Shown: positions 6,480-30,632 of the stretch, in pieces
Layout: each line of letters begins with the position of its first letter
How positions within the stretch are numbered: the first letter of the stretch is position 1
From: a virus
Reading direction: 5' to 3' (one strand)
Virus record (IMG/VR): IMGVR_UViG_3300045988_055839
DNA length: 43,220 nt
Notes under the pieces: generated by a model
Told to the model about the DNA's origin: nothing
Database searches by the model: none
The model's input: the letters and a program-made list of their open reading frames with translations, nothing else
Position numbers and translations under genes: made by a program

Positions 6480-7586
6480 ATGGCAAAGGCGAAGTATACA
6501 AAGCAAAAGAACGGGTATTTTCAAGCCCGTGTGTGGGATGGAAGTTATGTTGATGGGAAAAAGCACTATATTACGATCCGGTCGAAGAAAAGCAGTAAGG
6601 ATCTGGAAGCAAAGGTGGCAGCCTACAACGACAAAATTAAGAACCTTGAAGCCGTCCGAGATAAAAACATCCTGTTTCTGGACTACGCCGGGCGGTGGCT
6701 GACAGTCTACAAAGCCGAAGCAACGAACAACACGAAGAGGATGTACCGGAATATCATTGAAAAGCATCTGCGGCAGATGGACGGCGTGCGGCTCTGCGAT
6801 GTCCTGCCGATCCACTACCAGACAGTCCTTAACGACGCGGCCGGAAAGAAACGCATCCAGCAGCAGATACAGCTTACATTCTCGCAGATCATGAAGGCCG
6901 CGGTGCATGACCGCCTGTATCCAGCCAACTTGCTCGAAGATCTCAAGGACGTGATGAAGCCAATCGACTACAAGGCAGATGAAAAGCGGCCACTGACCAT
7001 AAACGAGAAAAAGGCGATGCAAGACGCTGAATTATCCCCATCTGATCGAATTTTTGTGGATATCTTGTACTGTACCGGATTAAGATGTGGAGAAGTGCTC
7101 GCCCTTACTCGGTTTGATATTGATTTTTCCGAAAAGATCATCAATGTGAACAAAGCAGTTGAATTTGATGATGCCGGGAAACCGAGCATCAAAGAACCGA
7201 AATCGAAGAACGGATTCCGGCAGGTTCCAATTCCGCCGCAGCTCTATACGTCGCTGGAAAGCTACGTGCGGTTCTGCATCAAGGGAACACTTCTGTTTTC
7301 CATGCAGGGCGACAAAATGGTGTCTAAATCCTCTTACCGCCGGAAGTGGGAAAGAATCATAAAGGAAATGAATAGAGTCGCTGAAAAGCCCGTCTGCGGA
7401 CTAACAGCCCATATCTTCCGTCACAACTACTGTACGTCGCTCTGCTACCAGATCCCGCGTATCTCGATCAAGAATATTGCGTCTCTCCTGGGGGATGACG
7501 AAGCAATGGTTTTGAGGATTTACAATCACATCATGCTGGAAAAAGAGGACACCGCCGGAGCGGTAGAAGCTGCTCTTTCTATGTGA
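6480..7586 (+). CDS. int: Tyrosine integrase (368 aa)
   Basis: N-terminal AKAKYTKQKNGYFQARVWDG arm-binding-type start. Catalytic signature: GLRCGEVLAL (Arg), HIFRHNYCT (HxxR), LLGDDEAMVLRIYNH (Tyr). Lies adjacent to attP. Confidence 0.92.
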   Translation: MAKAKYTKQKNGYFQARVWDGSYVDGKKHYITIRSKKSSKDLEAKVAAYNDKIKNLEAVRDKNILFLDYAGRWLTVYKAEATNNTKRMYRNIIEKHLRQMDGVRLCDVLPIHYQTVLNDAAGKKRIQQQIQLTFSQIMKAAVHDRLYPANLLEDLKDVMKPIDYKADEKRPLTINEKKAMQDAELSPSDRIFVDILYCTGLRCGEVLALTRFDIDFSEKIINVNKAVEFDDAGKPSIKEPKSKNGFRQVPIPPQLYTSLESYVRFCIKGTLLFSMQGDKMVSKSSYRRKWERIIKEMNRVAEKPVCGLTAHIFRHNYCTSLCYQIPRISIKNIASLLGDDEAMVLRIYNHIMLEKEDTAGAVEAALSM

Positions 7587-7731: not shown

Positions 7732-7785
7732 TGAAGCATCGGGGATTCGAACCCCGGACAACTTGATTAAAAGTCAAGTGCTCCT
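7732..7785 (-). other. attP core: 3' portion of a tRNA-Lys(UUU) gene (D-stem 3' strand through the acceptor 3' strand)
   Basis: Minus strand reads GAGCA-CTTGA-CTTTTAA-TCAAG-TTGTC-CGGGG-TTCGAAT-CCCCG-ATGCTTC-A: anticodon arm with TTT, T-arm, and acceptor 3' strand. No matching 5' acceptor strand (GAAGCAT) or canonical D-arm lies upstream, so this is a fragment. Confidence 0.75.
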
Positions 7786-7828
7786 TACCTACTAAAATGC
7801 CCGCAAATACGCCATTCTTGAGAAAAGT

Positions 7829-8918: not shown

Positions 8919-10037
8919 TTACTGTCGATTACACCACTCCTGTAAAGCCTTGACCATCGCTGACGGGTAGCTGATCACGCTGTCTACAGGTGTGCCGAGT
9001 TTTTTCTGGAGCGCACGGATGGTCTGCGGTCCGATATATCCGTCCACGGTCACTCCCGCCCATTTCTGCATGGCTTTGATCAGATCGGAGCCGCCGGACA
9101 GCTTGCCAGACCATTCGGCCGCCGCGATGCCAGCACAGTATTTTTTATTGGCGGTTGGCTGATTGCTGATCACGCCGTCTACTCCGGTTTTAAAAATCTC
9201 CTGCAAGCGTTTGGTCAGCTCCGGCCCCCAAACGCCGTCAACCGAGATCGTTTTTGCGGTCGGCTTCTGATCGGATGCAGATGCCGGGCCACCGTAAGTG
9301 CAGTATGCTGTGTGGCAATTGATCCAGCCCGCACCAGAGAGCAACCGTCCCCAGCTTCCATTCTGAATTTCTGTCACCGTGTAGCTGCCGCGGTCTTTGA
9401 TCGTTCCAACGCGTCGGCTGTCTGCATCCGGTTTCTCCCGGATATTCAGATCGGTGTTGACTCGATAGATTCCCGGTTTGTAGGTTTTCTCTCCGGATGC
9501 ATTGGCGCTTCCGGAAGAATCGAAGTTTCCGTTACTGATCAACTTTTTGAATCTCGTCCAATCACCTCTTGCATTAATCTGCGATGGGCAGTTTTTGCTG
9601 CAGATATCGAGATGGCGGTAAACTCTGGATGCTGGGATGCCTGTTTCTTTCATGAGCTGCCGCACCAGCGCCGCGGTGTTCTGGAATGCCTTTTCGTAAT
9701 CGTATCCGCCCTGTACGCACATTTCCACGCCAATGCTGTTCCGGTTGCCATAAGAGCCGAACAGGTTGCCGTTTCCGTAGTTGATGCCAACGTGCCAGCA
9801 TCCGCGGCTATGCGGCGCGGCCTGGTAGGCAGTATCTCCATCGTCCACGTAGTAGTGTGCAGACATGTTCTGGAAATTACCGTCATGCTGCGCTTTGGCG
9901 TGTGCTCGTGCATTGGCACCTGCTGCGAAGTTGTCGGTGTTATGTACAACAATACACTGTGGGTTGTTGTACGGATAGGTGTTCTGGCTGCTGATGTATG
10001 ATCTGTTAATTCTCATTTGTCGATGCTCCTTTTCCAT
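8919..10037 (-). CDS. Endolysin: N-acetylmuramoyl-L-alanine amidase (Amidase_2/PGRP type) plus SH3 plus two PG_binding_1 repeats
   Basis: N-terminal CIVVHNTDN...AHYYVDD...VGVEMC amidase_2 pattern. SH3-like segment YRVNTDLNIREKPDADSRRVGTIKDRGSYTVTEIQNGSWGRL. Two VDGxxGPxTxxxLQ repeats at the C-terminus. Confidence 0.92.
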   Translation of the reverse strand: MEKEHRQMRINRSYISSQNTYPYNNPQCIVVHNTDNFAAGANARAHAKAQHDGNFQNMSAHYYVDDGDTAYQAAPHSRGCWHVGINYGNGNLFGSYGNRNSIGVEMCVQGGYDYEKAFQNTAALVRQLMKETGIPASRVYRHLDICSKNCPSQINARGDWTRFKKLISNGNFDSSGSANASGEKTYKPGIYRVNTDLNIREKPDADSRRVGTIKDRGSYTVTEIQNGSWGRLLSGAGWINCHTAYCTYGGPASASDQKPTAKTISVDGVWGPELTKRLQEIFKTGVDGVISNQPTANKKYCAGIAAAEWSGKLSGGSDLIKAMQKWAGVTVDGYIGPQTIRALQKKLGTPVDSVISYPSAMVKALQEWCNRQ

Positions 10038-10093: not shown

Positions 10094-10906
10094 TTAGACT
10101 ATGTATCGGTGATGGCTGTATCTTACGTTTTCCTGCGTTACTTTTGCGTAGATCATCGTGGTACTGATCCGCGTATGACCGAGGAGTTTCTGCAGATCTG
10201 TCACGTCCATGCCGTGGTCTATCGCATTTGTAGCTGTGGTGTGCCGGATCAGATGAGGAAATAGCGGTCTCACGATGCCGGATCGCACGCCGATGTTGTG
10301 GATGACCTGCTCTATAGCTTGCTTTTGCAGAGCATGGTAAGGCTTACGTATTGTACAGAAAACGGCATCTGTATCGTCTTTTCTGGTAGCCCAATACTTC
10401 TGCAGAGTGTATTCTGCGCGGGCGTTAAGATAAGAAACTCGGTGTTTGCGGCCTTTTCCGAACAATCTGACTTCTTTCGTGGAGAAATCAATATCTTCTT
10501 TTTTGAGGATCGCCATTTCCGAAACACGGCATCCGGTACTGTAGAAAAACTCGATCATTGCTCTTTCTCGAAGATCAACGCACGCATCCCGTACCATTTC
10601 CATCTCGATGCCATCAAGTGGCTCTCGCGGCTTCTCCTCGTACTTAATGGCGTGGATTTTCGCACATGGGTTCTCCGGAATGTAATATTCCAGACAACAC
10701 CAGTCAAGAAACGTATTGATAACGATGCGCTTAGTGTCAATGGTATGATCCGAGTTCTTCCCAACCAGCCCGTACAAATATAAGCGGATATCATTTGCCG
10801 TGATTTTCTCAACTGGCTTGCCGACGGCGTACAAAAACTGTTCCAGATAACATTTGTAAGTTATAAGCGACTGCGGACTCATGCCCTCAATCTTTTTCGA
10901 TACCAT
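10094..10906 (-). CDS. Second tyrosine recombinase, XerC/XerD-like (270 aa from ATG 10906; the N-terminus may be truncated)
   Basis: Catalytic residues are present: TGCRVSEMAIL (Arg), GKGRKHRV (Lys), HLIRHTTAT (HxxR), LLGHTRISTTMIYAKV (His...Tyr). The frame stays open for 41 codons upstream of the ATG, back to the tail-fibre stop, with no ATG/GTG/TTG. Confidence 0.85.
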   Translation of the reverse strand: MVSKKIEGMSPQSLITYKCYLEQFLYAVGKPVEKITANDIRLYLYGLVGKNSDHTIDTKRIVINTFLDWCCLEYYIPENPCAKIHAIKYEEKPREPLDGIEMEMVRDACVDLRERAMIEFFYSTGCRVSEMAILKKEDIDFSTKEVRLFGKGRKHRVSYLNARAEYTLQKYWATRKDDTDAVFCTIRKPYHALQKQAIEQVIHNIGVRSGIVRPLFPHLIRHTTATNAIDHGMDVTDLQKLLGHTRISTTMIYAKVTQENVRYSHHRYIV

Positions 10907-24977: not shown

Positions 24978-25068
24978 TAATGGGAAAATAGGATTCGAAC
25001 CTATCAAGCAGTCCAAAGATCCAGCATCTTATGGCAGAATCAAGGGGGATGATGCCAGTTTTCCATTA
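24978..25068 (-). ncRNA. tRNA-like element (non-canonical cloverleaf with a perfect T-arm)
   Basis: Minus strand: TAATGGAAAA closes with TTTTCCCATTA. T-arm ATAGG-TTCGAAT-CCTAT. Two further hairpins: GGCATCA..TGAT..TGCC and AAGAT-GCTGG-ATCTT. The D-arm and anticodon loop do not fit a standard tRNA. Confidence 0.4.
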
Positions 25069-25311
25069 CTGTTTCCCAATTGTGTAATTCATAGTAATAA
25101 GAAACACGCCGCGTTTTCAGAAAGGCTTGAGGAACGGAAAACGCGGCATATTTCAGACACGTTCCGAGCCTTGTGCAGGCTCTTAACAGGATCCCCTAGA
25201 ACGTCGAAAGGAGGTGAATTGAACATCAAAATGACTTACAAGCCCATCCCAACTTCTTTTCACTCTCCTATCATACTATATTCAATGTTTTTCGTTGTAC
25301 CCATCTTGTCA

Positions 25312-25737
25312 TCACGAATCAGCAAGCTTTCGTATCTGCTGCATGATAGCCTGTCTTTCGTCGCGAAAATCCGCATCAAGAATCATCGCCTGTAACATAT
25401 CGAACACCTCAACCATCAGGCGGCCGACGGAATCCATAAGCTTATCTTTGTGCGCCGCGTCTCCGTGTTCCTGGTACGCCATTTTTGCCGCAATGTACTC
25501 GTCATACAGCGCGTCAATATTCTTATCGTATTTTCCATTGCTGTACTTCTTAATCAGCGTTTCTGACGCGTCCATCATGGCCGCAGGAATGCTCTCACAC
25601 TCCATTTTTCGCATATTGCATAACGTGGTCGTGATTTTGAACATTGCGTCAAGGTTATCTGTCGTGAGTTTCTGCATCGCAGATTCTTTTTCTCTTTCCA
25701 ACTGCTTTTCCAGCACTTCTTTCACGTTTCCCATCAT
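25312..25737 (-). CDS. Hypothetical helical protein (141 aa), island gene
   Basis: Track ORF. Its start overlaps the stop of the upstream gene (ATGA). No family recognised. Confidence 0.7.
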   Translation of the reverse strand: MMGNVKEVLEKQLEREKESAMQKLTTDNLDAMFKITTTLCNMRKMECESIPAAMMDASETLIKKYSNGKYDKNIDALYDEYIAAKMAYQEHGDAAHKDKLMDSVGRLMVEVFDMLQAMILDADFRDERQAIMQQIRKLADS

Positions 25738-26327
25738 TCAACCTCGATTCCTTTCATGCGTTTTTTGTATTTTTCGTTCAATTCTTTCTGCGACTCAGTG
25801 ATATGGACCATATCATAGCCGGTCGAGATCAGATCAAGAATAATTTTGTCAACCTCTTTCAATTCATCGCCCACATCATCTATCAGCGAAGCTACAAGCA
25901 TGAAATCTTCCACATTTCCTTTTTCAAGTAGCATTGCGGCATAGCTCTGATATACCGCTTTTGTCTCCTCTTCCCATTCGCGATAGGCGGAAAATCCATC
26001 CTCTACGGCTTTCTGCTTAGTGCCTTTTCCGACGGAAATGCTTTTTGCGGCATACCATCCGTCCGGAATCATTTTAACCTCGCCAGAAAACGCATCTGGA
26101 ATAATTTTCCCGTGCCGTTCGATGTAATACCGGCACACCTTACGGCGCTCAAGGCTTTCTGCGATGTGCTGGTACTCATGTATCCGTTTGTAACCTTTCA
26201 GCCCGAGAAAATCGAAATAATCTGCCATCTGGCCGTGCATCATGATAGCTGCCACGAAGCGGCTGTTGATTTCCGAAAAAATAGCATCCGCATCTGTTAC
26301 GTCTGTTTTGCTTCGGAAAGTAATCAT
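25734..26327 (-). CDS. Ferritin-like fold protein (197 aa), island gene
   Basis: IFSEINSRFVAAIMMHGQMADYFDFLGLKGYKRIHEYQHIAESLERRK resembles ferritin/Dps helices A-B, including an ExxH motif. GGGGGTGA RBS. Confidence 0.6.
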   Translation of the reverse strand: MITFRSKTDVTDADAIFSEINSRFVAAIMMHGQMADYFDFLGLKGYKRIHEYQHIAESLERRKVCRYYIERHGKIIPDAFSGEVKMIPDGWYAAKSISVGKGTKQKAVEDGFSAYREWEEETKAVYQSYAAMLLEKGNVEDFMLVASLIDDVGDELKEVDKIILDLISTGYDMVHITESQKELNEKYKKRMKGIEVE

Positions 26328-26340
26328 GATTCGTCACCCC

Positions 26341-26769
26341 CTACGCAACTTTTTTGATGATGAGGTTCGCGTCTTTTACCAGGACTTCGGTTGTAGAAAT
26401 ATTTCCGACTGATACAGTAAGGCTTGTTCCTGCCGGTACAGGGATCAGCGTGTCCGCGCTCACATTCTGATAAGTGTTCGCCGTAACTACGGTATAGTCC
26501 ATCTCTGTTCCTCCAACCGCTTCTCCGTTCAGTTTCAGCGTAAGCACGGTCGCGCCTGCTGCCGCCGCTGTTACGTTGCCGTTGAATTGTAATTCCACTG
26601 CGATAGGAAGGTTCGTGCGGTTCGTTATTGTGAAAATTCCGCTTCCCTCGATGTGGTTCAGCCATCCGCTGGAGCATCCACAACGACGGGATTTTACGCG
26701 GGTATTTGTGAATACAATATTCTGTCCTGCTGCTACTGTCTGTTCTGCTTTGGCAATTACATTTAACAT
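26341..26769 (-). CDS. BclA-C-terminal-domain-like (C1q/TNF jelly-roll-like) protein, 142 aa
   Basis: Start at Met22 (AAAAGGAGAG RBS). The beta-rich sequence ends ...LTLKLNGEAVGGTEMD...SLTVSVGNISTTEVLVKDANLIIKKVA. As I recall it, the B. anthracis BclA CTD has ...LTIQVNGVPVPGTGSS... and ends ...ASIIIEKVA (recollection, unverified). Confidence 0.6.
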   Translation of the reverse strand: MLNVIAKAEQTVAAGQNIVFTNTRVKSRRCGCSSGWLNHIEGSGIFTITNRTNLPIAVELQFNGNVTAAAAGATVLTLKLNGEAVGGTEMDYTVVTANTYQNVSADTLIPVPAGTSLTVSVGNISTTEVLVKDANLIIKKVA

Positions 26770-26837
26770 AATTTCTCTCCTTTTCTTAACAAAACAGGGG
26801 TAAGCTCCACGCCTACCCCTGCAATTTTGCACAACTA

Positions 26838-27050
26838 CTATTTCGTAGATTTGGAATCTTCCAACATGCTGATTATTTTATTTTGGTTTTCGATGATCCG
26901 GTCAAGGTACTTTCTGTCCTGTTCCTGCAGATGTTTTGCGATATCCGCATTGCTTGCCTGTGACAGGTCGCTCTGATAATTCATCGCCTGAAGGAATACA
27001 CCGAACAGGTTCAGAAGATCGAGTGCGGACAGCTCGCTTGTGTTCATCAC
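26838..27050 (-). CDS. Hypothetical protein (70 aa), island gene
   Basis: Track ORF. Translationally coupled to the upstream gene (overlap at 27047-27050). Confidence 0.6.
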   Translation of the reverse strand: MMNTSELSALDLLNLFGVFLQAMNYQSDLSQASNADIAKHLQEQDRKYLDRIIENQNKIISMLEDSKSTK

Positions 27051-27733
27051 AGCACGTTACCGCCATTTCCGCAGCATCCGCCGTATCCTGTCATGTTGTA
27101 CGCAAAATACGGGGAGCATGTAAGATAAGCCGGTGTAGGTGTCGGGCGTACCGCATCAATGATTGTACGGGTCTGAGAAACCTGTGAAATCTGATTGTAC
27201 GCGTTCTGCAGATCGCGGTCACGGTCTGACAGCTTATCTCTAAGTGCCTGGATGGTGTTTTCCTGCATCATCTGTCTGGTTGCGTTTCCATCGGCCAGAA
27301 TGCTCTCCTTGATGTCACAGCAACACTGTGCCATCTGCGCCTGCATATTCTGTGCCATGAGTGCCGCATCATACCGGCTCTGCAGGATTTCTTTCTGCGT
27401 TTCACAGCAACAATTCTGCTGTGCCGCCTGTACCTGCTGTAAGCCGAGCTGATTGGTGTAACGATTTTCCAATACGTCCCTCTGTGTCTGGCAAGCAGTG
27501 TTGGAAACGTTCTGATTGGTGTTGAAAATATCACGTTTCACAAATTCATCCGAAATGAAATTATCATGTACGCCAGTTTCAACGCCGCCGCGGTTCCATC
27601 CGCCCATCATCGGGAACAGAAATGCCAGCAAAATAATCCAGATCCACCAGCAGCCACCGCCCCAGTCATCGTCATTGTTTCTCGTTACGGCTGCTACATC
27701 AGCCGCGCTAAGTCCCATTGTTCCATCTGTCAT
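27047..27733 (-). CDS. Membrane-anchored Gln-rich coiled-coil protein with Cys-triplet repeats (228 aa)
   Basis: AAGGAG RBS. N-terminal TM segment (WWIWIILLAFLFPMMGGW). Three ~30-aa repeats: ACQTQRDVLENRY, CCCETQKEILQSRY, CCCDIKESILADG. The C-terminus is ...GYGGCCGNGGNVL. Confidence 0.75.
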   Translation of the reverse strand: MTDGTMGLSAADVAAVTRNNDDDWGGGCWWIWIILLAFLFPMMGGWNRGGVETGVHDNFISDEFVKRDIFNTNQNVSNTACQTQRDVLENRYTNQLGLQQVQAAQQNCCCETQKEILQSRYDAALMAQNMQAQMAQCCCDIKESILADGNATRQMMQENTIQALRDKLSDRDRDLQNAYNQISQVSQTRTIIDAVRPTPTPAYLTCSPYFAYNMTGYGGCCGNGGNVL

Positions 27734-27786
27734 GGTTCTTTCTCCTTATTCTTCTATTTATTAAGGCTGTGCACCGCCCTAATATC

Positions 27787-28047
27787 TTATTTCATTAGCC
27801 CGGAGAACTGCCCCGGGTCCATCCCGTTCTGTCTGCACATTTCCTCGAATACCTGCTTCGGGTTCTTTCCCTTGCACATATCCATAGCTTTTTTAACATT
27901 CGGGTTCGTCTGCGCCATCTGTTCTACTGCGGCCTGCGGGTTGCCCGCCTGTTTGAGCTTATTGACCATCTGCATAGCCTGCATCATCGCGCCCATCGGG
28001 TTGTTACCGCCTCTCATATTGCCTATCATGCTCATTAATGGATTCAT
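27787..28047 (-). CDS. Met/Gln/Asn-rich small protein (86 aa), island gene
   Basis: Track ORF. Its start overlaps the stop of the upstream gene (ATGA). Low-complexity N-terminus MNPLMSMIGNMRGGNNPMGAMMQAMQM. Confidence 0.6.
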   Translation of the reverse strand: MNPLMSMIGNMRGGNNPMGAMMQAMQMVNKLKQAGNPQAAVEQMAQTNPNVKKAMDMCKGKNPKQVFEEMCRQNGMDPGQFSGLMK

Positions 28048-28496
28048 ACGGGTTCCTCCTTATTCTCCGGCTTTTCGCCTAATCGCGTCAGCAGAGCGTC
28101 AAATTCCTGCCGCGTAACGTATTCTTGTCTTTCTTCTTTTGGCTGGCTCTGTGCCAGGTTTAGGGCTTCTGGCGAGATCTCGGCGAACTGAAACACCTTG
28201 AAAGTCGCGCTTCCCATGCCGTCCACAGACTTAACGTAGAAAACAGGGCTGTTGTTGTCCATCATCCAGGCAGTGTGTCCAGGCTGGACAATCTGATTTC
28301 TTGCGCCCTCGATGCCTGCAACCTGTATCCAATTTACGTTGCTAGTCGGTGCCTGCGGCTGTTGCTGACTCTGTGGTGCATACATGCTCATCTGCTGGTT
28401 TCTCGCCTGTTCCAACTGATTAATTCTTTGCTGTAACATCGCCTGTTCATTTGCAAATGCCTGTGGATCAATTGTTGTATACGGATACATATTCAT
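28044..28496 (-). CDS. Gln-rich N-terminus plus small beta-domain protein (150 aa), island gene
   Basis: GGAGGG RBS; the start may be Met3 at 28490. Contains NWIQVAGIEGARNQIVQPGHTAWMMDNNSPVFYVKSVDGMGSATFKVFQF. No family assigned. Confidence 0.7.
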   Translation of the reverse strand: MNMYPYTTIDPQAFANEQAMLQQRINQLEQARNQQMSMYAPQSQQQPQAPTSNVNWIQVAGIEGARNQIVQPGHTAWMMDNNSPVFYVKSVDGMGSATFKVFQFAEISPEALNLAQSQPKEERQEYVTRQEFDALLTRLGEKPENKEEPV

Positions 28497-28530
28497 CCCT
28501 CCGTTCTCTTTCTACTCATATTTTAGGCGC

Positions 28531-28562
28531 AAAAAAAGGACTCTGACAGTTCGTCAAAGTCC
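28531..28562 (-). terminator. Strong rho-independent terminator between the sigma-r4-like gene and the downstream island genes
   Basis: Minus strand: GGACTTTGACgaactGTCAGAGTCC followed by TTTTTTT. 10-bp stem including one G-U pair. Confidence 0.75.
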
Positions 28563-28586
28563 CATGAAATGCTTAAAAAAGTATCA

Positions 28587-28787
28587 TCAGCATACTTTAA
28601 TGATTTTGGTGTTTACGTTTCTGCTGATCCGTTTTGCAGTAGAAACAGAAATGTTCATTAGTTCCGCACACTTTTCAAGCGGAATATTCCTACTCCGATA
28701 ATCAAAAAGTGTACGTTCGTCACGCGTAAAATTACAATACGTGCGAAAATATTCCAGCTCCGGTACTGTGAATTCATACACTTTCAA
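28587..28787 (-). CDS. Small sigma-70 region-4 / LuxR-type HTH protein (66 aa)
   Basis: FTRDERTLFDYRSRNIPLEKCAELMNISVSTAKRISRNVNTKI fits the r4_2/GerE HTH pattern. TTG start with an AGAGGG RBS. Confidence 0.6.
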   Translation of the reverse strand: MKVYEFTVPELEYFRTYCNFTRDERTLFDYRSRNIPLEKCAELMNISVSTAKRISRNVNTKIIKVC

Positions 28788-28798
28788 GATAAGCCCTC

Positions 28799-29131
28799 TT
28801 AATTTTTCTTGTCGGTCATCGCATTTACAAGTTCTTCCCTCGTTTTTTTTAAGCCCTCGATGTTGTTCCCTGTAATCTTATTTTCGATCAGGTTGAACAT
28901 ACTCCTCATTATCAGATTCATATCATCTCGTTGGGTGCGGATAGAGGTATAATCTTTCTCAAGTTTTGACTTGATATCCTTGATATCCTCCTCCATCGTC
29001 TGCATCCTCTTTTCCAGATCCCTCTCGGGCTTTTTGAATTTCTTCCATGCTCCGGTCAGAACCACAATCGCGCCACCTACTGTAGTTATCCAGCCGCAGA
29101 GAATCATGATTTGATTAATCGTCTCAATCAT
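28799..29131 (-). CDS. N-terminally anchored coiled-coil membrane protein (110 aa)
   Basis: Met14 of the track ORF, overlapping the stop of the head-morphogenesis gene. TM segment IMILCGWITTVGGAIVVLTGAW followed by a charged coiled coil. Confidence 0.6.
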   Translation of the reverse strand: MIETINQIMILCGWITTVGGAIVVLTGAWKKFKKPERDLEKRMQTMEEDIKDIKSKLEKDYTSIRTQRDDMNLIMRSMFNLIENKITGNNIEGLKKTREELVNAMTDKKN

Positions 29132-30362
29132 CTGCTTTTTCCTTTTTGCGTTTTTGATATCGCCGTGCATCCGCTGCGGCTCTTGCTGCCTGTTTTCGGT
29201 CCCAATGGGCTATTTTCAATCGCTCATCATAAGGGCGCAGGTTGTTGTCTTCGCAAAACTTGCGATATGCTTTATTTTGCTTACTAAGCAAATTAGCTTT
29301 TTGCTCTGTTCTACTTTGCAATTTGCTTTTCGTCTCGTCATCGCTTGCGTTGTCTATAGCATATTGCAAAGTTTGAATTTGCCTTTTGCTGTTTCGTATT
29401 CTGCGCTCCAACAATCGTTGCCGCTTCTGTGCTTCTTCAACCTTACGATTATCTGCGTATGAGATGTTCTTAGCGTCAAATGGGTTGTTCTTTCCGTCTC
29501 CCGATCCGAAGCTATGACGGCAATTCCAGCCACCCAGCCCCTCGCCGGTGCCGTATCCGGTCACCTCGTAGAAATTCGGGTATTTCTTGTTTTTTCCGGT
29601 TCGGGAATAGAATCGCCCTTGCCACCAAAGATGATTTCCCGGGTTCTGCCCGCCGTCTCCCGTTCGTGCGCCTACATGAGCAGAAACAAGAATAATATCC
29701 CAGTCCATCTCCTCCATCCGCGCTTCTGATACATCGCACGCCGCCTGCGCTATACCGGTGCGTACGATGGTCATGGTCGCAGATTCAAGGCTCTGCCGGT
29801 ATCCTGTCGGGTACTTGACTGTCAGCCCCTCCTCGGACACTTTCTCGATCAGATCAGCCACCATAGCGCCGTAAGACTCTCCGCCGCTCAGAACCCTGTG
29901 ATAGGCGCTGTCAAGCTCGTTGATAAAAAGTCTCTGCGCTTCTTCTGCGGTCGTCCGGGTGAAGTTCCGCCATGTGCCCGCGGTCGCCTTATAGTCTCTT
30001 TCCAGTACGCGCATTAGTGTGGGGGAAAGAAGAATCGGCGTAGGTACCAGCCCAGCCGCCTTATATACCGCGTCGTCCCACTTGAGCGTCTGTATTCCCG
30101 CGTCAACGCAGGCTGATTTGATCTCTGATAGCTGCTGATTGGTCGCCTTTGCTATCTCTTTCTGGATATCTTCCAGCAGATAGCCAGCTTCCTGCAGTGC
30201 TTCGATTCTCCACTTGTCCGCCGCCGTCAGCATGTAGTTTTCGCCGCGTTCCATGCGTGTTAAAATCGCCTTGACGATCTTCCGCATGATCCGGTTGTGT
30301 AAATCCTCTGTGATGGCTTCTGCGCCCTCTGCCGCGTGCTGCAGATACTCCGGGGTAAGCAT
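29124..30362 (-). CDS. Head morphogenesis protein (SPP1 gp7 / Mu F-like), 412 aa
   Basis: Positioned after the portal and holin genes. Mu F-type core with ...GTGEGLGGWNCRHSF..., followed by a basic coiled-coil C-terminal tail. Confidence 0.85.
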   Translation of the reverse strand: MLTPEYLQHAAEGAEAITEDLHNRIMRKIVKAILTRMERGENYMLTAADKWRIEALQEAGYLLEDIQKEIAKATNQQLSEIKSACVDAGIQTLKWDDAVYKAAGLVPTPILLSPTLMRVLERDYKATAGTWRNFTRTTAEEAQRLFINELDSAYHRVLSGGESYGAMVADLIEKVSEEGLTVKYPTGYRQSLESATMTIVRTGIAQAACDVSEARMEEMDWDIILVSAHVGARTGDGGQNPGNHLWWQGRFYSRTGKNKKYPNFYEVTGYGTGEGLGGWNCRHSFGSGDGKNNPFDAKNISYADNRKVEEAQKRQRLLERRIRNSKRQIQTLQYAIDNASDDETKSKLQSRTEQKANLLSKQNKAYRKFCEDNNLRPYDERLKIAHWDRKQAARAAADARRYQKRKKEKADD

Positions 30363-30365
30363 GTC

Positions 30366-30632
30366 TTATTCCTCTTTCTGTGCCTGTTTGATGATCTGGT
30401 TTGCTCCGGTGCTTGCTAATCCGCTGACAATGCCGACGGCTACCGCATTAAGCACGTCATGCGCCGGAAAGTCCGGGATTGTGTACATACCAACAACGCC
30501 AAGCACCGCTCCCGCCAATCCTACTGCGCACGGAATCCACTTGTTGCTAATATCCGTTGCTTTCATCACCATGCCTACCAGATAGCAGACTATTGTGATG
30601 CAGACTACTGTTGCTACTCCACTCATATCCAT
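30366..30632 (-). CDS. Holin (Hol118-like), 88 aa
   Basis: Met68 of the track ORF, with AAGGAGG upstream. MDMSGVATVVCITIVCYLVGMVMKATDISNKWIPCAVGLAGAVLGVV...GLASTGANQIIKQAQKEE aligns by eye with Listeria phage A118 Hol118 (...[25 protein letters not shown]...). Confidence 0.7.
   Translation of the reverse strand: MDMSGVATVVCITIVCYLVGMVMKATDISNKWIPCAVGLAGAVLGVVGMYTIPDFPAHDVLNAVAVGIVSGLASTGANQIIKQAQKEE

Follow-up and report, generated by a model that had tools for sequence, protein, structure and literature searches.

The window analysed here is the whole 43,220-nucleotide stretch of viral DNA held as IMG/VR record IMGVR_UViG_3300045988_055839, a temperate phage with a tyrosine integrase beside a tRNA-Lys gene, a CI-like repressor, an antirepressor and an amidase endolysin. 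All of its genes from the large terminase (33823-32276) through the capsid gene (24180-23152) lie on the minus strand, and within this run the MuF gene (30362-29124, minus strand) is separated from the scaffold gene (24902-24240, minus strand) by nine open reading frames (ORFs), labelled i1 to i9. A first-pass annotation had described these as a nine-gene island interrupting the head-morphogenesis module and reminiscent of spore-coat or exosporium building blocks, with a capsid decoration system or a membrane-associated infection or exclusion apparatus as alternatives. All nine reading frames were found in the order that it gave, and together with the signals around them they are as follows, in transcription order.

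28799 to 29131, minus strand: i1, 110 amino acids (aa), N-terminal transmembrane segment and charged helical C-terminal part; overlaps the end of MuF
28587 to 28787, minus strand: i2, 66 aa, stand-alone LuxR/GerE-type (sigma region 4-like) helix-turn-helix (HTH) protein; candidate regulator
28577 to 28585, minus strand: GATACTTTT box directly 3' of the i2 stop codon; candidate operator
28537 to 28563, minus strand: intrinsic terminator-like hairpin and U-tract after i2 (12-bp stem, then TTTTTTT)
28520 to 28549, minus strand: promoter-like site for i3-i9 from a sequence scan (CTGTCA, 18 nt, TAAAAT), overlapping the terminator
28044 to 28496, minus strand: i3, 150 aa, core gene; Gln-rich N-terminus, small beta-rich domain and C-terminal YVTRxEF helix
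27787 to 28047, minus strand: i4, 86 aa, core gene coupled to i3; Met/Gln/Asn-rich, helical
27047 to 27733, minus strand: i5, 228 aa, single-pass membrane protein at the centre of the block
26838 to 27050, minus strand: i6, 70 aa, helical, optional member of the block
26794 to 26822, minus strand: GC-rich hairpin followed by TTTTGTT, between i6 and i7, upstream of the true i7 start
26341 to 26769, minus strand: i7, 142 aa, stand-alone C1q/TNF-type jelly roll, nearest to the BclA C-terminal domain (CTD) and ExsFA/BxpB
25734 to 26327, minus strand: i8, 197 aa, ferritin homologue, optional member of the block
25312 to 25737, minus strand: i9, 141 aa, helical, core gene coupled to i8
25101 to 25160, minus strand: strong hairpin with U-rich tail after i9 (dG -25.8 kcal/mol); terminator-like end of i3-i9
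24981 to 25078, minus strand: tRNA-like element of 98 nt with acceptor stem and GGTTCGAATCC T-arm, at the start of the scaffold leader

A Shine-Dalgarno sequence is present upstream of every one of the nine genes, and overlaps occur at four junctions, MuF/i1, i3/i4 (ATGA), i5/i6 (GTGATG) and i8/i9 (ATGATG), in line with the translational coupling proposed earlier for several of them. All nine are conserved in MT837318, a gut-virome fragment in GenBank, with 53-84% aa identity, and they also recur across dozens of IMG/VR contigs. Compared with one close relative, the ratio of non-synonymous to synonymous substitution rates (dN/dS) is 0.044 for i3, 0.048 for i4, 0.008 for i5, 0.039 for i6 and 0.082 for i7, against 0.060 for the capsid protein, so that i3-i7 are under strong purifying selection comparable to that acting on the capsid protein. 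In diverged relatives i5, i6 and i7 keep 80-85% identity while terminase, portal and MuF drop to 37-64%. Because of this conservation in MT837318 and the IMG/VR contigs and the low dN/dS values, i1-i9 can be regarded as real genes. Two starts were corrected in the process: i1 begins at ATG 29131, which gives 110 aa as in its homologues, and not at 29170, and i7 begins at ATG 26769, its 142 aa again matching the homologues and the PHROG match spanning residues 22-163 of the longer ORF first called.

The relation of this island to the head module was addressed with 80 IMG/VR loci picked for a capsid protein sharing at least 80% identity with that of the window (the capsid-selected set). About 50 of these carry the full island, 25 have MuF-i1 and then, ahead of the scaffold gene, a Tad2-like gene, another gene coding for about 105 aa and a tRNA-Met, and three pass from MuF to the scaffold gene with zero genes between them. 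The island is therefore variable among phages with near-identical capsids. Judged by terminase, portal, MuF and scaffold, the island-less phages stand as close to the window as an island-bearing group of relatives does (the L008 group). Thus, the island is dispensable for the head module of the window and the MuF/scaffold junction is a cargo hotspot, in agreement with the first-pass view that the inserted genes are unrelated to head morphogenesis. Its statement that in SPP1-like order the scaffold gene comes straight after MuF holds for the island-less relatives; SPP1 itself has small genes 8-10 at this junction. The candidate regulator and the block travel together, since i2 and i3-i9 are both present in 52 of the 80 loci and both missing from the other 28, whereas i1 is retained in 25 relatives without i2-i9 and, for that reason, is not strictly a member of the portable block, although it is conserved adjoining MuF in 62 loci.

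A further variable position lies inside the island. The stretch between i2 and i3 ranges from 76 nt to 4.6 kb, being empty in the window (90 nt) and holding Tad2-like genes (PF11195, E 2.9e-28), HTH genes or a tRNA in relatives. Examples of the Tad2-like (anti-Thoeris) slot genes are L010:8182-8727, L008:8371-8733 and L136:7981-8343, and genes of this kind also make up the short alternative cargo of the island-less relatives. The MuF/scaffold junction of these Lachnospiraceae phages thus accepts anti-defence genes, tRNAs or the present operon.

The downstream edge of this cargo site is marked by the tRNA-like element. The 409-nt gap upstream of the scaffold gene, which includes this element and the hairpin after i9, folds unusually well (z = -3.7), and in the corresponding gap 60 of 65 relatives have a T-loop motif. 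Other lineages place one to three real tRNA genes (Tyr, Met, Ser, Ile, Thr, Ala, Asn) in the same slot, and the last such gene or tRNA-like element is always separated from the scaffold start by about 88 nt, with a conserved TTACC... leader following it; the relatives in which this element or slot was noted are L003, L008, L018-L026, L062-L091, L136 and L140. ARAGORN and Rfam called no RNA gene in or beside the island of the window. Since the element is also found in island-less phages, even where only about 135 nt separate MuF from the scaffold gene, it belongs to the scaffold leader and not, as had been supposed, to the island, and for the same reason a duplicated tRNA 3' end left as an insertion scar of the island was rejected. 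As a guess, the element may serve as a processing signal for RNase P/Z.

Evidence that the block is portable comes from a second set of 91 loci selected by i7. Across these loci an ordered core recurs, i2-[variable slot]-i3-i4-i5-(i6)-i7-(i8)-i9, with a median spacing of -8 nt for i3/i4 (76 loci) and 12 nt for i7/i9; i3 is present in 77, i9 in 80, i8 in 37 and i6 in 18 of the 91, the last two also in Clostridium perfringens phages, and i6 is absent from the L008 group. The block lies between MuF and the scaffold gene in about 65 of the 91, some of which have a capsid protein that is not detectably related to that of the window, and after the tail and lysis genes, convergent with an integrase, in about 17 (L001, L045-L054, L061 and L068 being loci of this post-lysis type). 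Cultured phages also differ in this respect: Butyrivibrio phage Ceridwen (Butyrivibrio fibrisolvens), for which its authors observed lytic growth only (PMC7372960), has i3-i4-i5-i7 downstream of the endolysin and an i1 homologue two genes upstream of it, and in the C. perfringens phages HMD-PC1 and vB_CpeS-17DYC the lysis cassette is followed by an i2-like gene, small ORFs and an antirepressor, and then by i3, an i4-like gene, i5, i6, i8 and Gam/recombinase genes. The block is therefore found at two distinct genome positions, in phages of Lachnospiraceae and Clostridium. With regard to the window itself, the host belongs to the Lachnospiraceae: Coprococcus comes MSK.16.63 has the same island on one of its contigs (96 kb), and homologues are named from C. 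comes.

Other searches for the block gave less. A megablast of the 11-kb region against GenBank phages matched a single 7-kb metagenomic fragment, and a scan of a genome collection with a narrower i7 alignment returned five loci, two of which lie in Bacteroidales bins, probably through mis-binning. In the post-lysis arrangement a conserved 125-aa ORF with the motif DGDWYDxWDSG and no Pfam match directly precedes i3 (L050:8057-8434, L097:5540-5917, L001:6394-6774), and the record of Ceridwen likens this ORF to a protein of Geobacillus phage GBK2. On some larger contigs of 96-146 kb (L055-L058, L060 and L074) only i5 and i7 of the block are present, each often broken into two ORFs, which suggests a decaying i5/i7 pair on larger elements.

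The block also appears to carry its own expression signals. The profile of i2 matches SdiA (2.7e-6), VpsT (8.8e-5), NarL (1.5e-4), sigma-H (0.0025) and GerE (0.0097), as well as the C-terminal domains of VraR and ComA, and i2 matches a PHROG sigma-factor family (E 1.4e-5), while in Pfam it remains under all cut-offs (Sigma70_r4 at E 0.2, GerE not listed). It resembles GerE-like stand-alone LuxR/FixJ HTH proteins and sigma-70 region 4 in having little beyond the HTH itself, but differs from the LuxR/FixJ type in its sub-threshold Pfam scores. These matches and the hairpin at 28563-28537 bear out the earlier description of a sigma-region-4/LuxR-type HTH followed by a terminator, and the perfect co-occurrence with i3-i9 in the capsid-selected set agrees with the idea that the island has a small regulator of its own. 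The exact GATACTTTT sequence is unique in the window, for which reason it was rejected as a general late-promoter box, and diverse relatives have one or two copies about 55-125 nt upstream of i3. At the position of the promoter-like site the relatives conserve (A/C)CTGTY-N18-19-TGnNAWAAT, an extended -10 motif that is, judged by its letters, of the housekeeping (sigma-A) promoter type. Terminator-like hairpins thus bracket the block, and the conserved extended -10 motif precedes i3. The additional hairpin at 26794-26822, which falls inside the longer ORF first called for i7, is possibly an attenuator or an mRNA stabiliser and may give the two halves of the operon unequal expression levels.

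Predicted structures were made for i7 and i8. The AlphaFold2 model of i7 has a predicted local distance difference test (pLDDT) score of 86, with strands over residues 2-140, so that the whole chain is a beta domain. Its top Foldseek matches in the PDB (9h38, 3twi, 1wck, 8d02 and 7r1m) have a probability of 1.00, TM-scores of 0.61-0.70 and E-values of 1e-6 to 1e-4, F-BclA and BclA C-terminal domains ranking first, BxpB and ExsFA next, and phage fibre knobs, C1q and TNF ligands thereafter. The predicted fold superposes on the BclA-CTD, as expected for the BclA-C/C1q-like jelly roll read from the sequence earlier, although sequence identity to the BclA/ExsF-type structures is 11-19% and the score of 22 bits against Pfam BclA_C (PF18573) lies below the gathering cut-off of 38; five of 12 relatives of i7 match the same family at E <= 0.01 (best 4.4e-7), likewise sub-threshold. 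Like the exosporium proteins of Bacillus (BclA CTD, F-BclA and ExsFA/BxpB), i7 has no signal peptide, but in contrast to them it is a stand-alone protein of 142 aa without collagen-like stalk or N-terminal exosporium leader, and some of the hosts of its carriers do not sporulate. Similar small stand-alone jelly-roll proteins are common in gut-phage metagenomes.

The ferritin-like character proposed for i8 was confirmed both by fold and by sequence. The AlphaFold2 model (pLDDT 93) has helices at 13-40, 44-72, 101-135, 139-168 and 173-192 (A-E) and a target-normalised TM-score of about 0.8 against Ftn structures, and the i8 profile finds ferritin at E 2.8e-5, while a Pfam ferritin family is called in none of 120 homologues. 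With the prokaryotic ferritins (Ftn) of Archaeoglobus, Pyrococcus and Thermotoga i8 shares helices A-D, a long BC loop and a short E helix, but its ferroxidase ligands are changed. In a hidden Markov model alignment to the Archaeoglobus ferritin, Glu17 corresponds to Arg23, Tyr24 to Met29 and His53 to Glu60, and the equivalent of Glu50 is kept (E57), so that three of the four helix-A/B ligands are replaced; R23, M29, E57 and E60 are invariant in 51 homologues. Formation of a cage by i8 is a candidate property.

For the remaining proteins the first-pass descriptions stood up as regards membrane segments, composition and Cys content, the coiled coils of i1 and i5 being putative features. The transmembrane segment of i1 comprises residues 8-26 and has a K/R-rich C-flank, which suggests an N-out/C-in topology; i3 has 21% Q+N and a beta-rich core that is conserved in the alignment, and i4 has 17% Met and 22% Q+N. 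In i5 the membrane anchor occupies residues 25-43; behind it come a Gly/Asn linker, a CCC-containing helical stretch, a Pro-rich motif and finally a tail of Cys and Gly. The 11 Cys of this protein include two CCC motifs, one of which is invariant across the family. A search of a representative library placed i5 in a family of 1,389 clusters at 50% identity, all of 80-300 aa and none with a domain fusion hinting at function. Hydrophobic segments are found only in i1 and i5, one transmembrane segment each, and an N-terminal hydrophobic stretch like that of a signal peptide is absent from all nine proteins. Database searches offered little on function: none of Pfam, NCBIfam, PADLOC and PDB gave a match for i3, i4, i5, i6 or i9, PDB sequences searched with profiles returned nothing for i3, i5 or i7, and i5 with 13 of its relatives has no Pfam, NCBIfam or PDB match and no ExsY/CotY/CdeC-type homology. 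The PHROG collection gave phrog_21718 for i3 (E 8e-19) and phrog_28802 for i9 (E 1.5e-9). No significant Pfam, NCBIfam or PADLOC family was obtained for i1, and the PADLOC scan of the island proteins yielded two weak coiled-coil matches only, both to i1. The first-pass annotation knew of no described phage system of this composition, and likewise none turned up in PADLOC, NCBIfam or literature searches on phage BclA/C1q proteins, phage ferritins and phage-encoded coat or exosporium genes; the F-ENA paper does not mention a phage link.

The presence/absence pattern, the second genome position and the independence from capsid type argue against a role in morphogenesis or decoration. The reading to which we incline, with confidence evenly poised between belief and doubt, is that the island is a portable, self-regulated accessory operon of moron-like nature, carried in a cargo hotspot between MuF and scaffold and not part of head morphogenesis. 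In such an operon i2 would control the i3 promoter through the GATACTTTT boxes, and the products would meet on the cytoplasmic face of the membrane, probably as a complex, given that signal-peptide-like segments are missing and that i1 and i5 alone have a transmembrane segment. There i5 could act as anchor and stalk, its invariant Cys triplet either stapling the oligomer or binding metal, and a jelly-roll trimer of i7 might dock on a conserved i5 peptide in the way that ExsF and BclA-type trimers dock on leader peptides; this docking is proposed by analogy with ExsF, which binds anchor peptides (PDB 9h3d; PMC12357932). The pair i3/i4 and the helical i6 and i9 would then be partners or chaperones, and i8 an optional cage-like component. 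The operon would work neither in the virion nor in the spore but in the course of infection, its target being a conserved function of the host envelope or of host defence. A role at the time of infection, in host takeover, exclusion or counter-defence, is favoured because temperate phages share the module with a phage for which lytic growth alone was observed, and because it lies beside Tad2-like anti-defence cargo, the specific function being assigned with low confidence, and the membrane-associated infection or exclusion apparatus listed last among the earlier alternatives appears to fit best. A more speculative extension, which we would give only a modest chance, is that i3-i9 build a new phage-encoded intracellular structure in Clostridia, with a membrane-tethered, Cys-stapled i5 stalk, a BclA/ExsF-type i7 trimer and sometimes a non-ferroxidase ferritin-type i8 cage, serving as an infection apparatus or compartment of a new class in temperate and lytic phages.

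A moron has been described as an independent transcription unit added to a phage operon, and the membrane moron gp15 of HK97, encoded in the late operon, excludes superinfection (PMC3594210). Apart from base composition, the promoter motif and terminator-like hairpins of the island fit this published description (PMC3594210). The likeness to morons such as HK97 gene 15 in the tail operon lies in extra DNA between adjacent late genes that is missing in some close relatives, encodes a membrane protein and is flanked by a promoter-like site and terminator-like hairpins (PMC3594210). The island differs, however, in being an operon of seven to nine genes with its own regulator instead of a single gene, in having no distinct GC content and in occurring also in a phage seen only in lytic growth.

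Several observations weigh against an accessory operon of this kind. The guanine-plus-cytosine (GC) content is 0.43-0.51 in the island and 0.45-0.52 in its flanks, showing no difference, unlike classic morons. Known morons and anti-defence genes are small and fast-evolving, whereas seven conserved genes with capsid-level constraint are found here, and the island proteins have no PADLOC or NCBIfam match. The charge bias around the i5 transmembrane segment, moreover, is weak (net -1.2 on the N side and about 0 on the C side). Finally, a single large gut metagenome study contributed most of the loci, which are redundant in part, and selection by i7 or by capsid biases the counts.

The evidence can also be read in other ways. 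The products could be optional virion components, either fibres or decoration of the head, or internal ejection proteins entering the cell after MuF, with i7 as a trimeric knob and i5 as a membrane-inserting pilot protein; most loci do have the block in the head module, its conservation equals that of the capsid protein, many phage fibres end in C1q-type knobs, the absence of signal peptides is shared with virion proteins, and the dispensability of some decoration proteins is compatible with island-less relatives. Nevertheless, the block has no fixed place in the head module, being absent from that module in island-less relatives and lying outside it elsewhere, after lysis genes and near an integrase or genes of the early region. 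Capsids of unrelated types go with it, a promoter motif and terminator-like hairpins of its own are present, and none of its proteins was found to have a structural PHROG or Pfam annotation. A virion role is thus improbable, and the capsid decoration suggested in the first-pass annotation loses ground with it. We judge equally improbable a system dedicated to counter-defence or to exclusion between phages, which would be expressed either early or by the prophage under its HTH regulator, even though Tad2-like genes occupy both the i2-i3 slot of relatives and the cargo of island-less phages. A small HTH gene, a strong conserved promoter motif and a hypervariable slot that carries Tad2 recall acr-aca-type anti-defence loci, but i2 stands upstream and not at the end of the operon, i3-i9 resemble no known anti-defence protein, PADLOC gave no match, no fold points to a known defence target, and the multi-gene make-up and strong purifying selection are atypical of arms-race genes. 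The precedent for exclusion by a membrane moron in a late operon is again HK97 gp15 (PMC3594210).

For a metal- or redox-handling module, in which the Cys triplet and CxC tail of i5 and the Met-rich i4 would bind metal and i8 would store it, one could cite the invariant CCC and Cys/Gly tail of i5, the 17% Met of i4 and the homology of i8 to ferritin. Yet three of the four helix-A/B ferroxidase ligands of i8 are replaced, with R23 and M29 invariant, i8 is missing from 54 of the 91 i7-selected loci, and the Met residues of i4 are not conserved in the alignment, on which ground its Met motifs were also set aside as copper sites; such a module is very unlikely. Highly doubtful, too, is the original suggestion of spore-coat or exosporium-like building blocks that alter the spore surface of the lysogen. 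Sporulation is known in C. perfringens and many Lachnospiraceae, i7 has its best structural matches in the BclA-CTD, F-BclA and ExsFA/BxpB, a Cys-rich i5 and a ferritin-fold protein are part of the block, the regulator is GerE-like in size and type, and signal peptides are absent as in coat proteins of the mother cell. However, the fold of i7 is the sole real link, and this fold is also common in phage fibre knobs and in stand-alone gut-phage proteins; i7 lacks collagen stalk and leader, i5 has a transmembrane anchor and no similarity to ExsY/CotY, the conserved promoter motif has the extended -10 form typical of sigma-A, and visual inspection showed neither CATA---TA nor CATACA-T upstream of i3, i5 or i7. 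Butyrivibrio is a non-spore-forming genus, and the spore-coat idea is weakened because some hosts are asporogenous and some carrier phages lytic, the module being present in Ceridwen, a phage of that genus. For Ceridwen, only lytic growth was observed (PMC7372960). Least probable of all, and scarcely to be expected, is a lysis-timing apparatus in which i5 would be a class III (T4 T-like) holin or a holin regulator with cytoplasmic partners. The architecture of i5 does recall holin T of T4, which has a short N-terminus, one transmembrane segment and a large Cys-containing C-terminal domain, and the block follows the lysis cassette in its second genome context, where the i1 homologue of Ceridwen stands two genes upstream of the endolysin. 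On the other hand, annotated holins are already present in these phages, island-less relatives presumably still lyse and, weak i1 matches aside, no sequence similarity to any holin family was seen.

The portable operon is of interest as a block under capsid-level constraint that nevertheless has no member protein of known function, and should that function be host takeover or defence, it would represent a new mechanism, built from several proteins, in phages that abound in the human gut. The large size of the i5 family and the presence of the block on hundreds of gut-phage contigs of about 45 kb indicate that the module is common, and its cultured carriers, namely Ceridwen, the C. perfringens phages HMD-PC1 and vB_CpeS-17DYC and the prophage of Coprococcus comes MSK.16.63 with the full island, make it testable. 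In addition, i8 is an apparently undescribed phage ferritin homologue with altered ferroxidase ligands, and i7 a stand-alone BclA/ExsF-type domain.

Outside the island, the window has two tyrosine-recombinase genes, at 10094-10906 (minus strand) and 6480-7586 (plus strand), one being XerC-like, with the endolysin to one side of it and a GDSL-lipase tail gene to the other, while the second adjoins the tRNA-Lys gene (7732-7803, minus strand), which may mark the attachment site. A Hol44-family holin-like gene (30366-30629, minus strand; PF16079, E 1.8e-23) lies between the portal and MuF genes, distant from the amidase endolysin at 8919-10037, and in relatives with another head type the Hol44 family is placed between head-tail connector genes.

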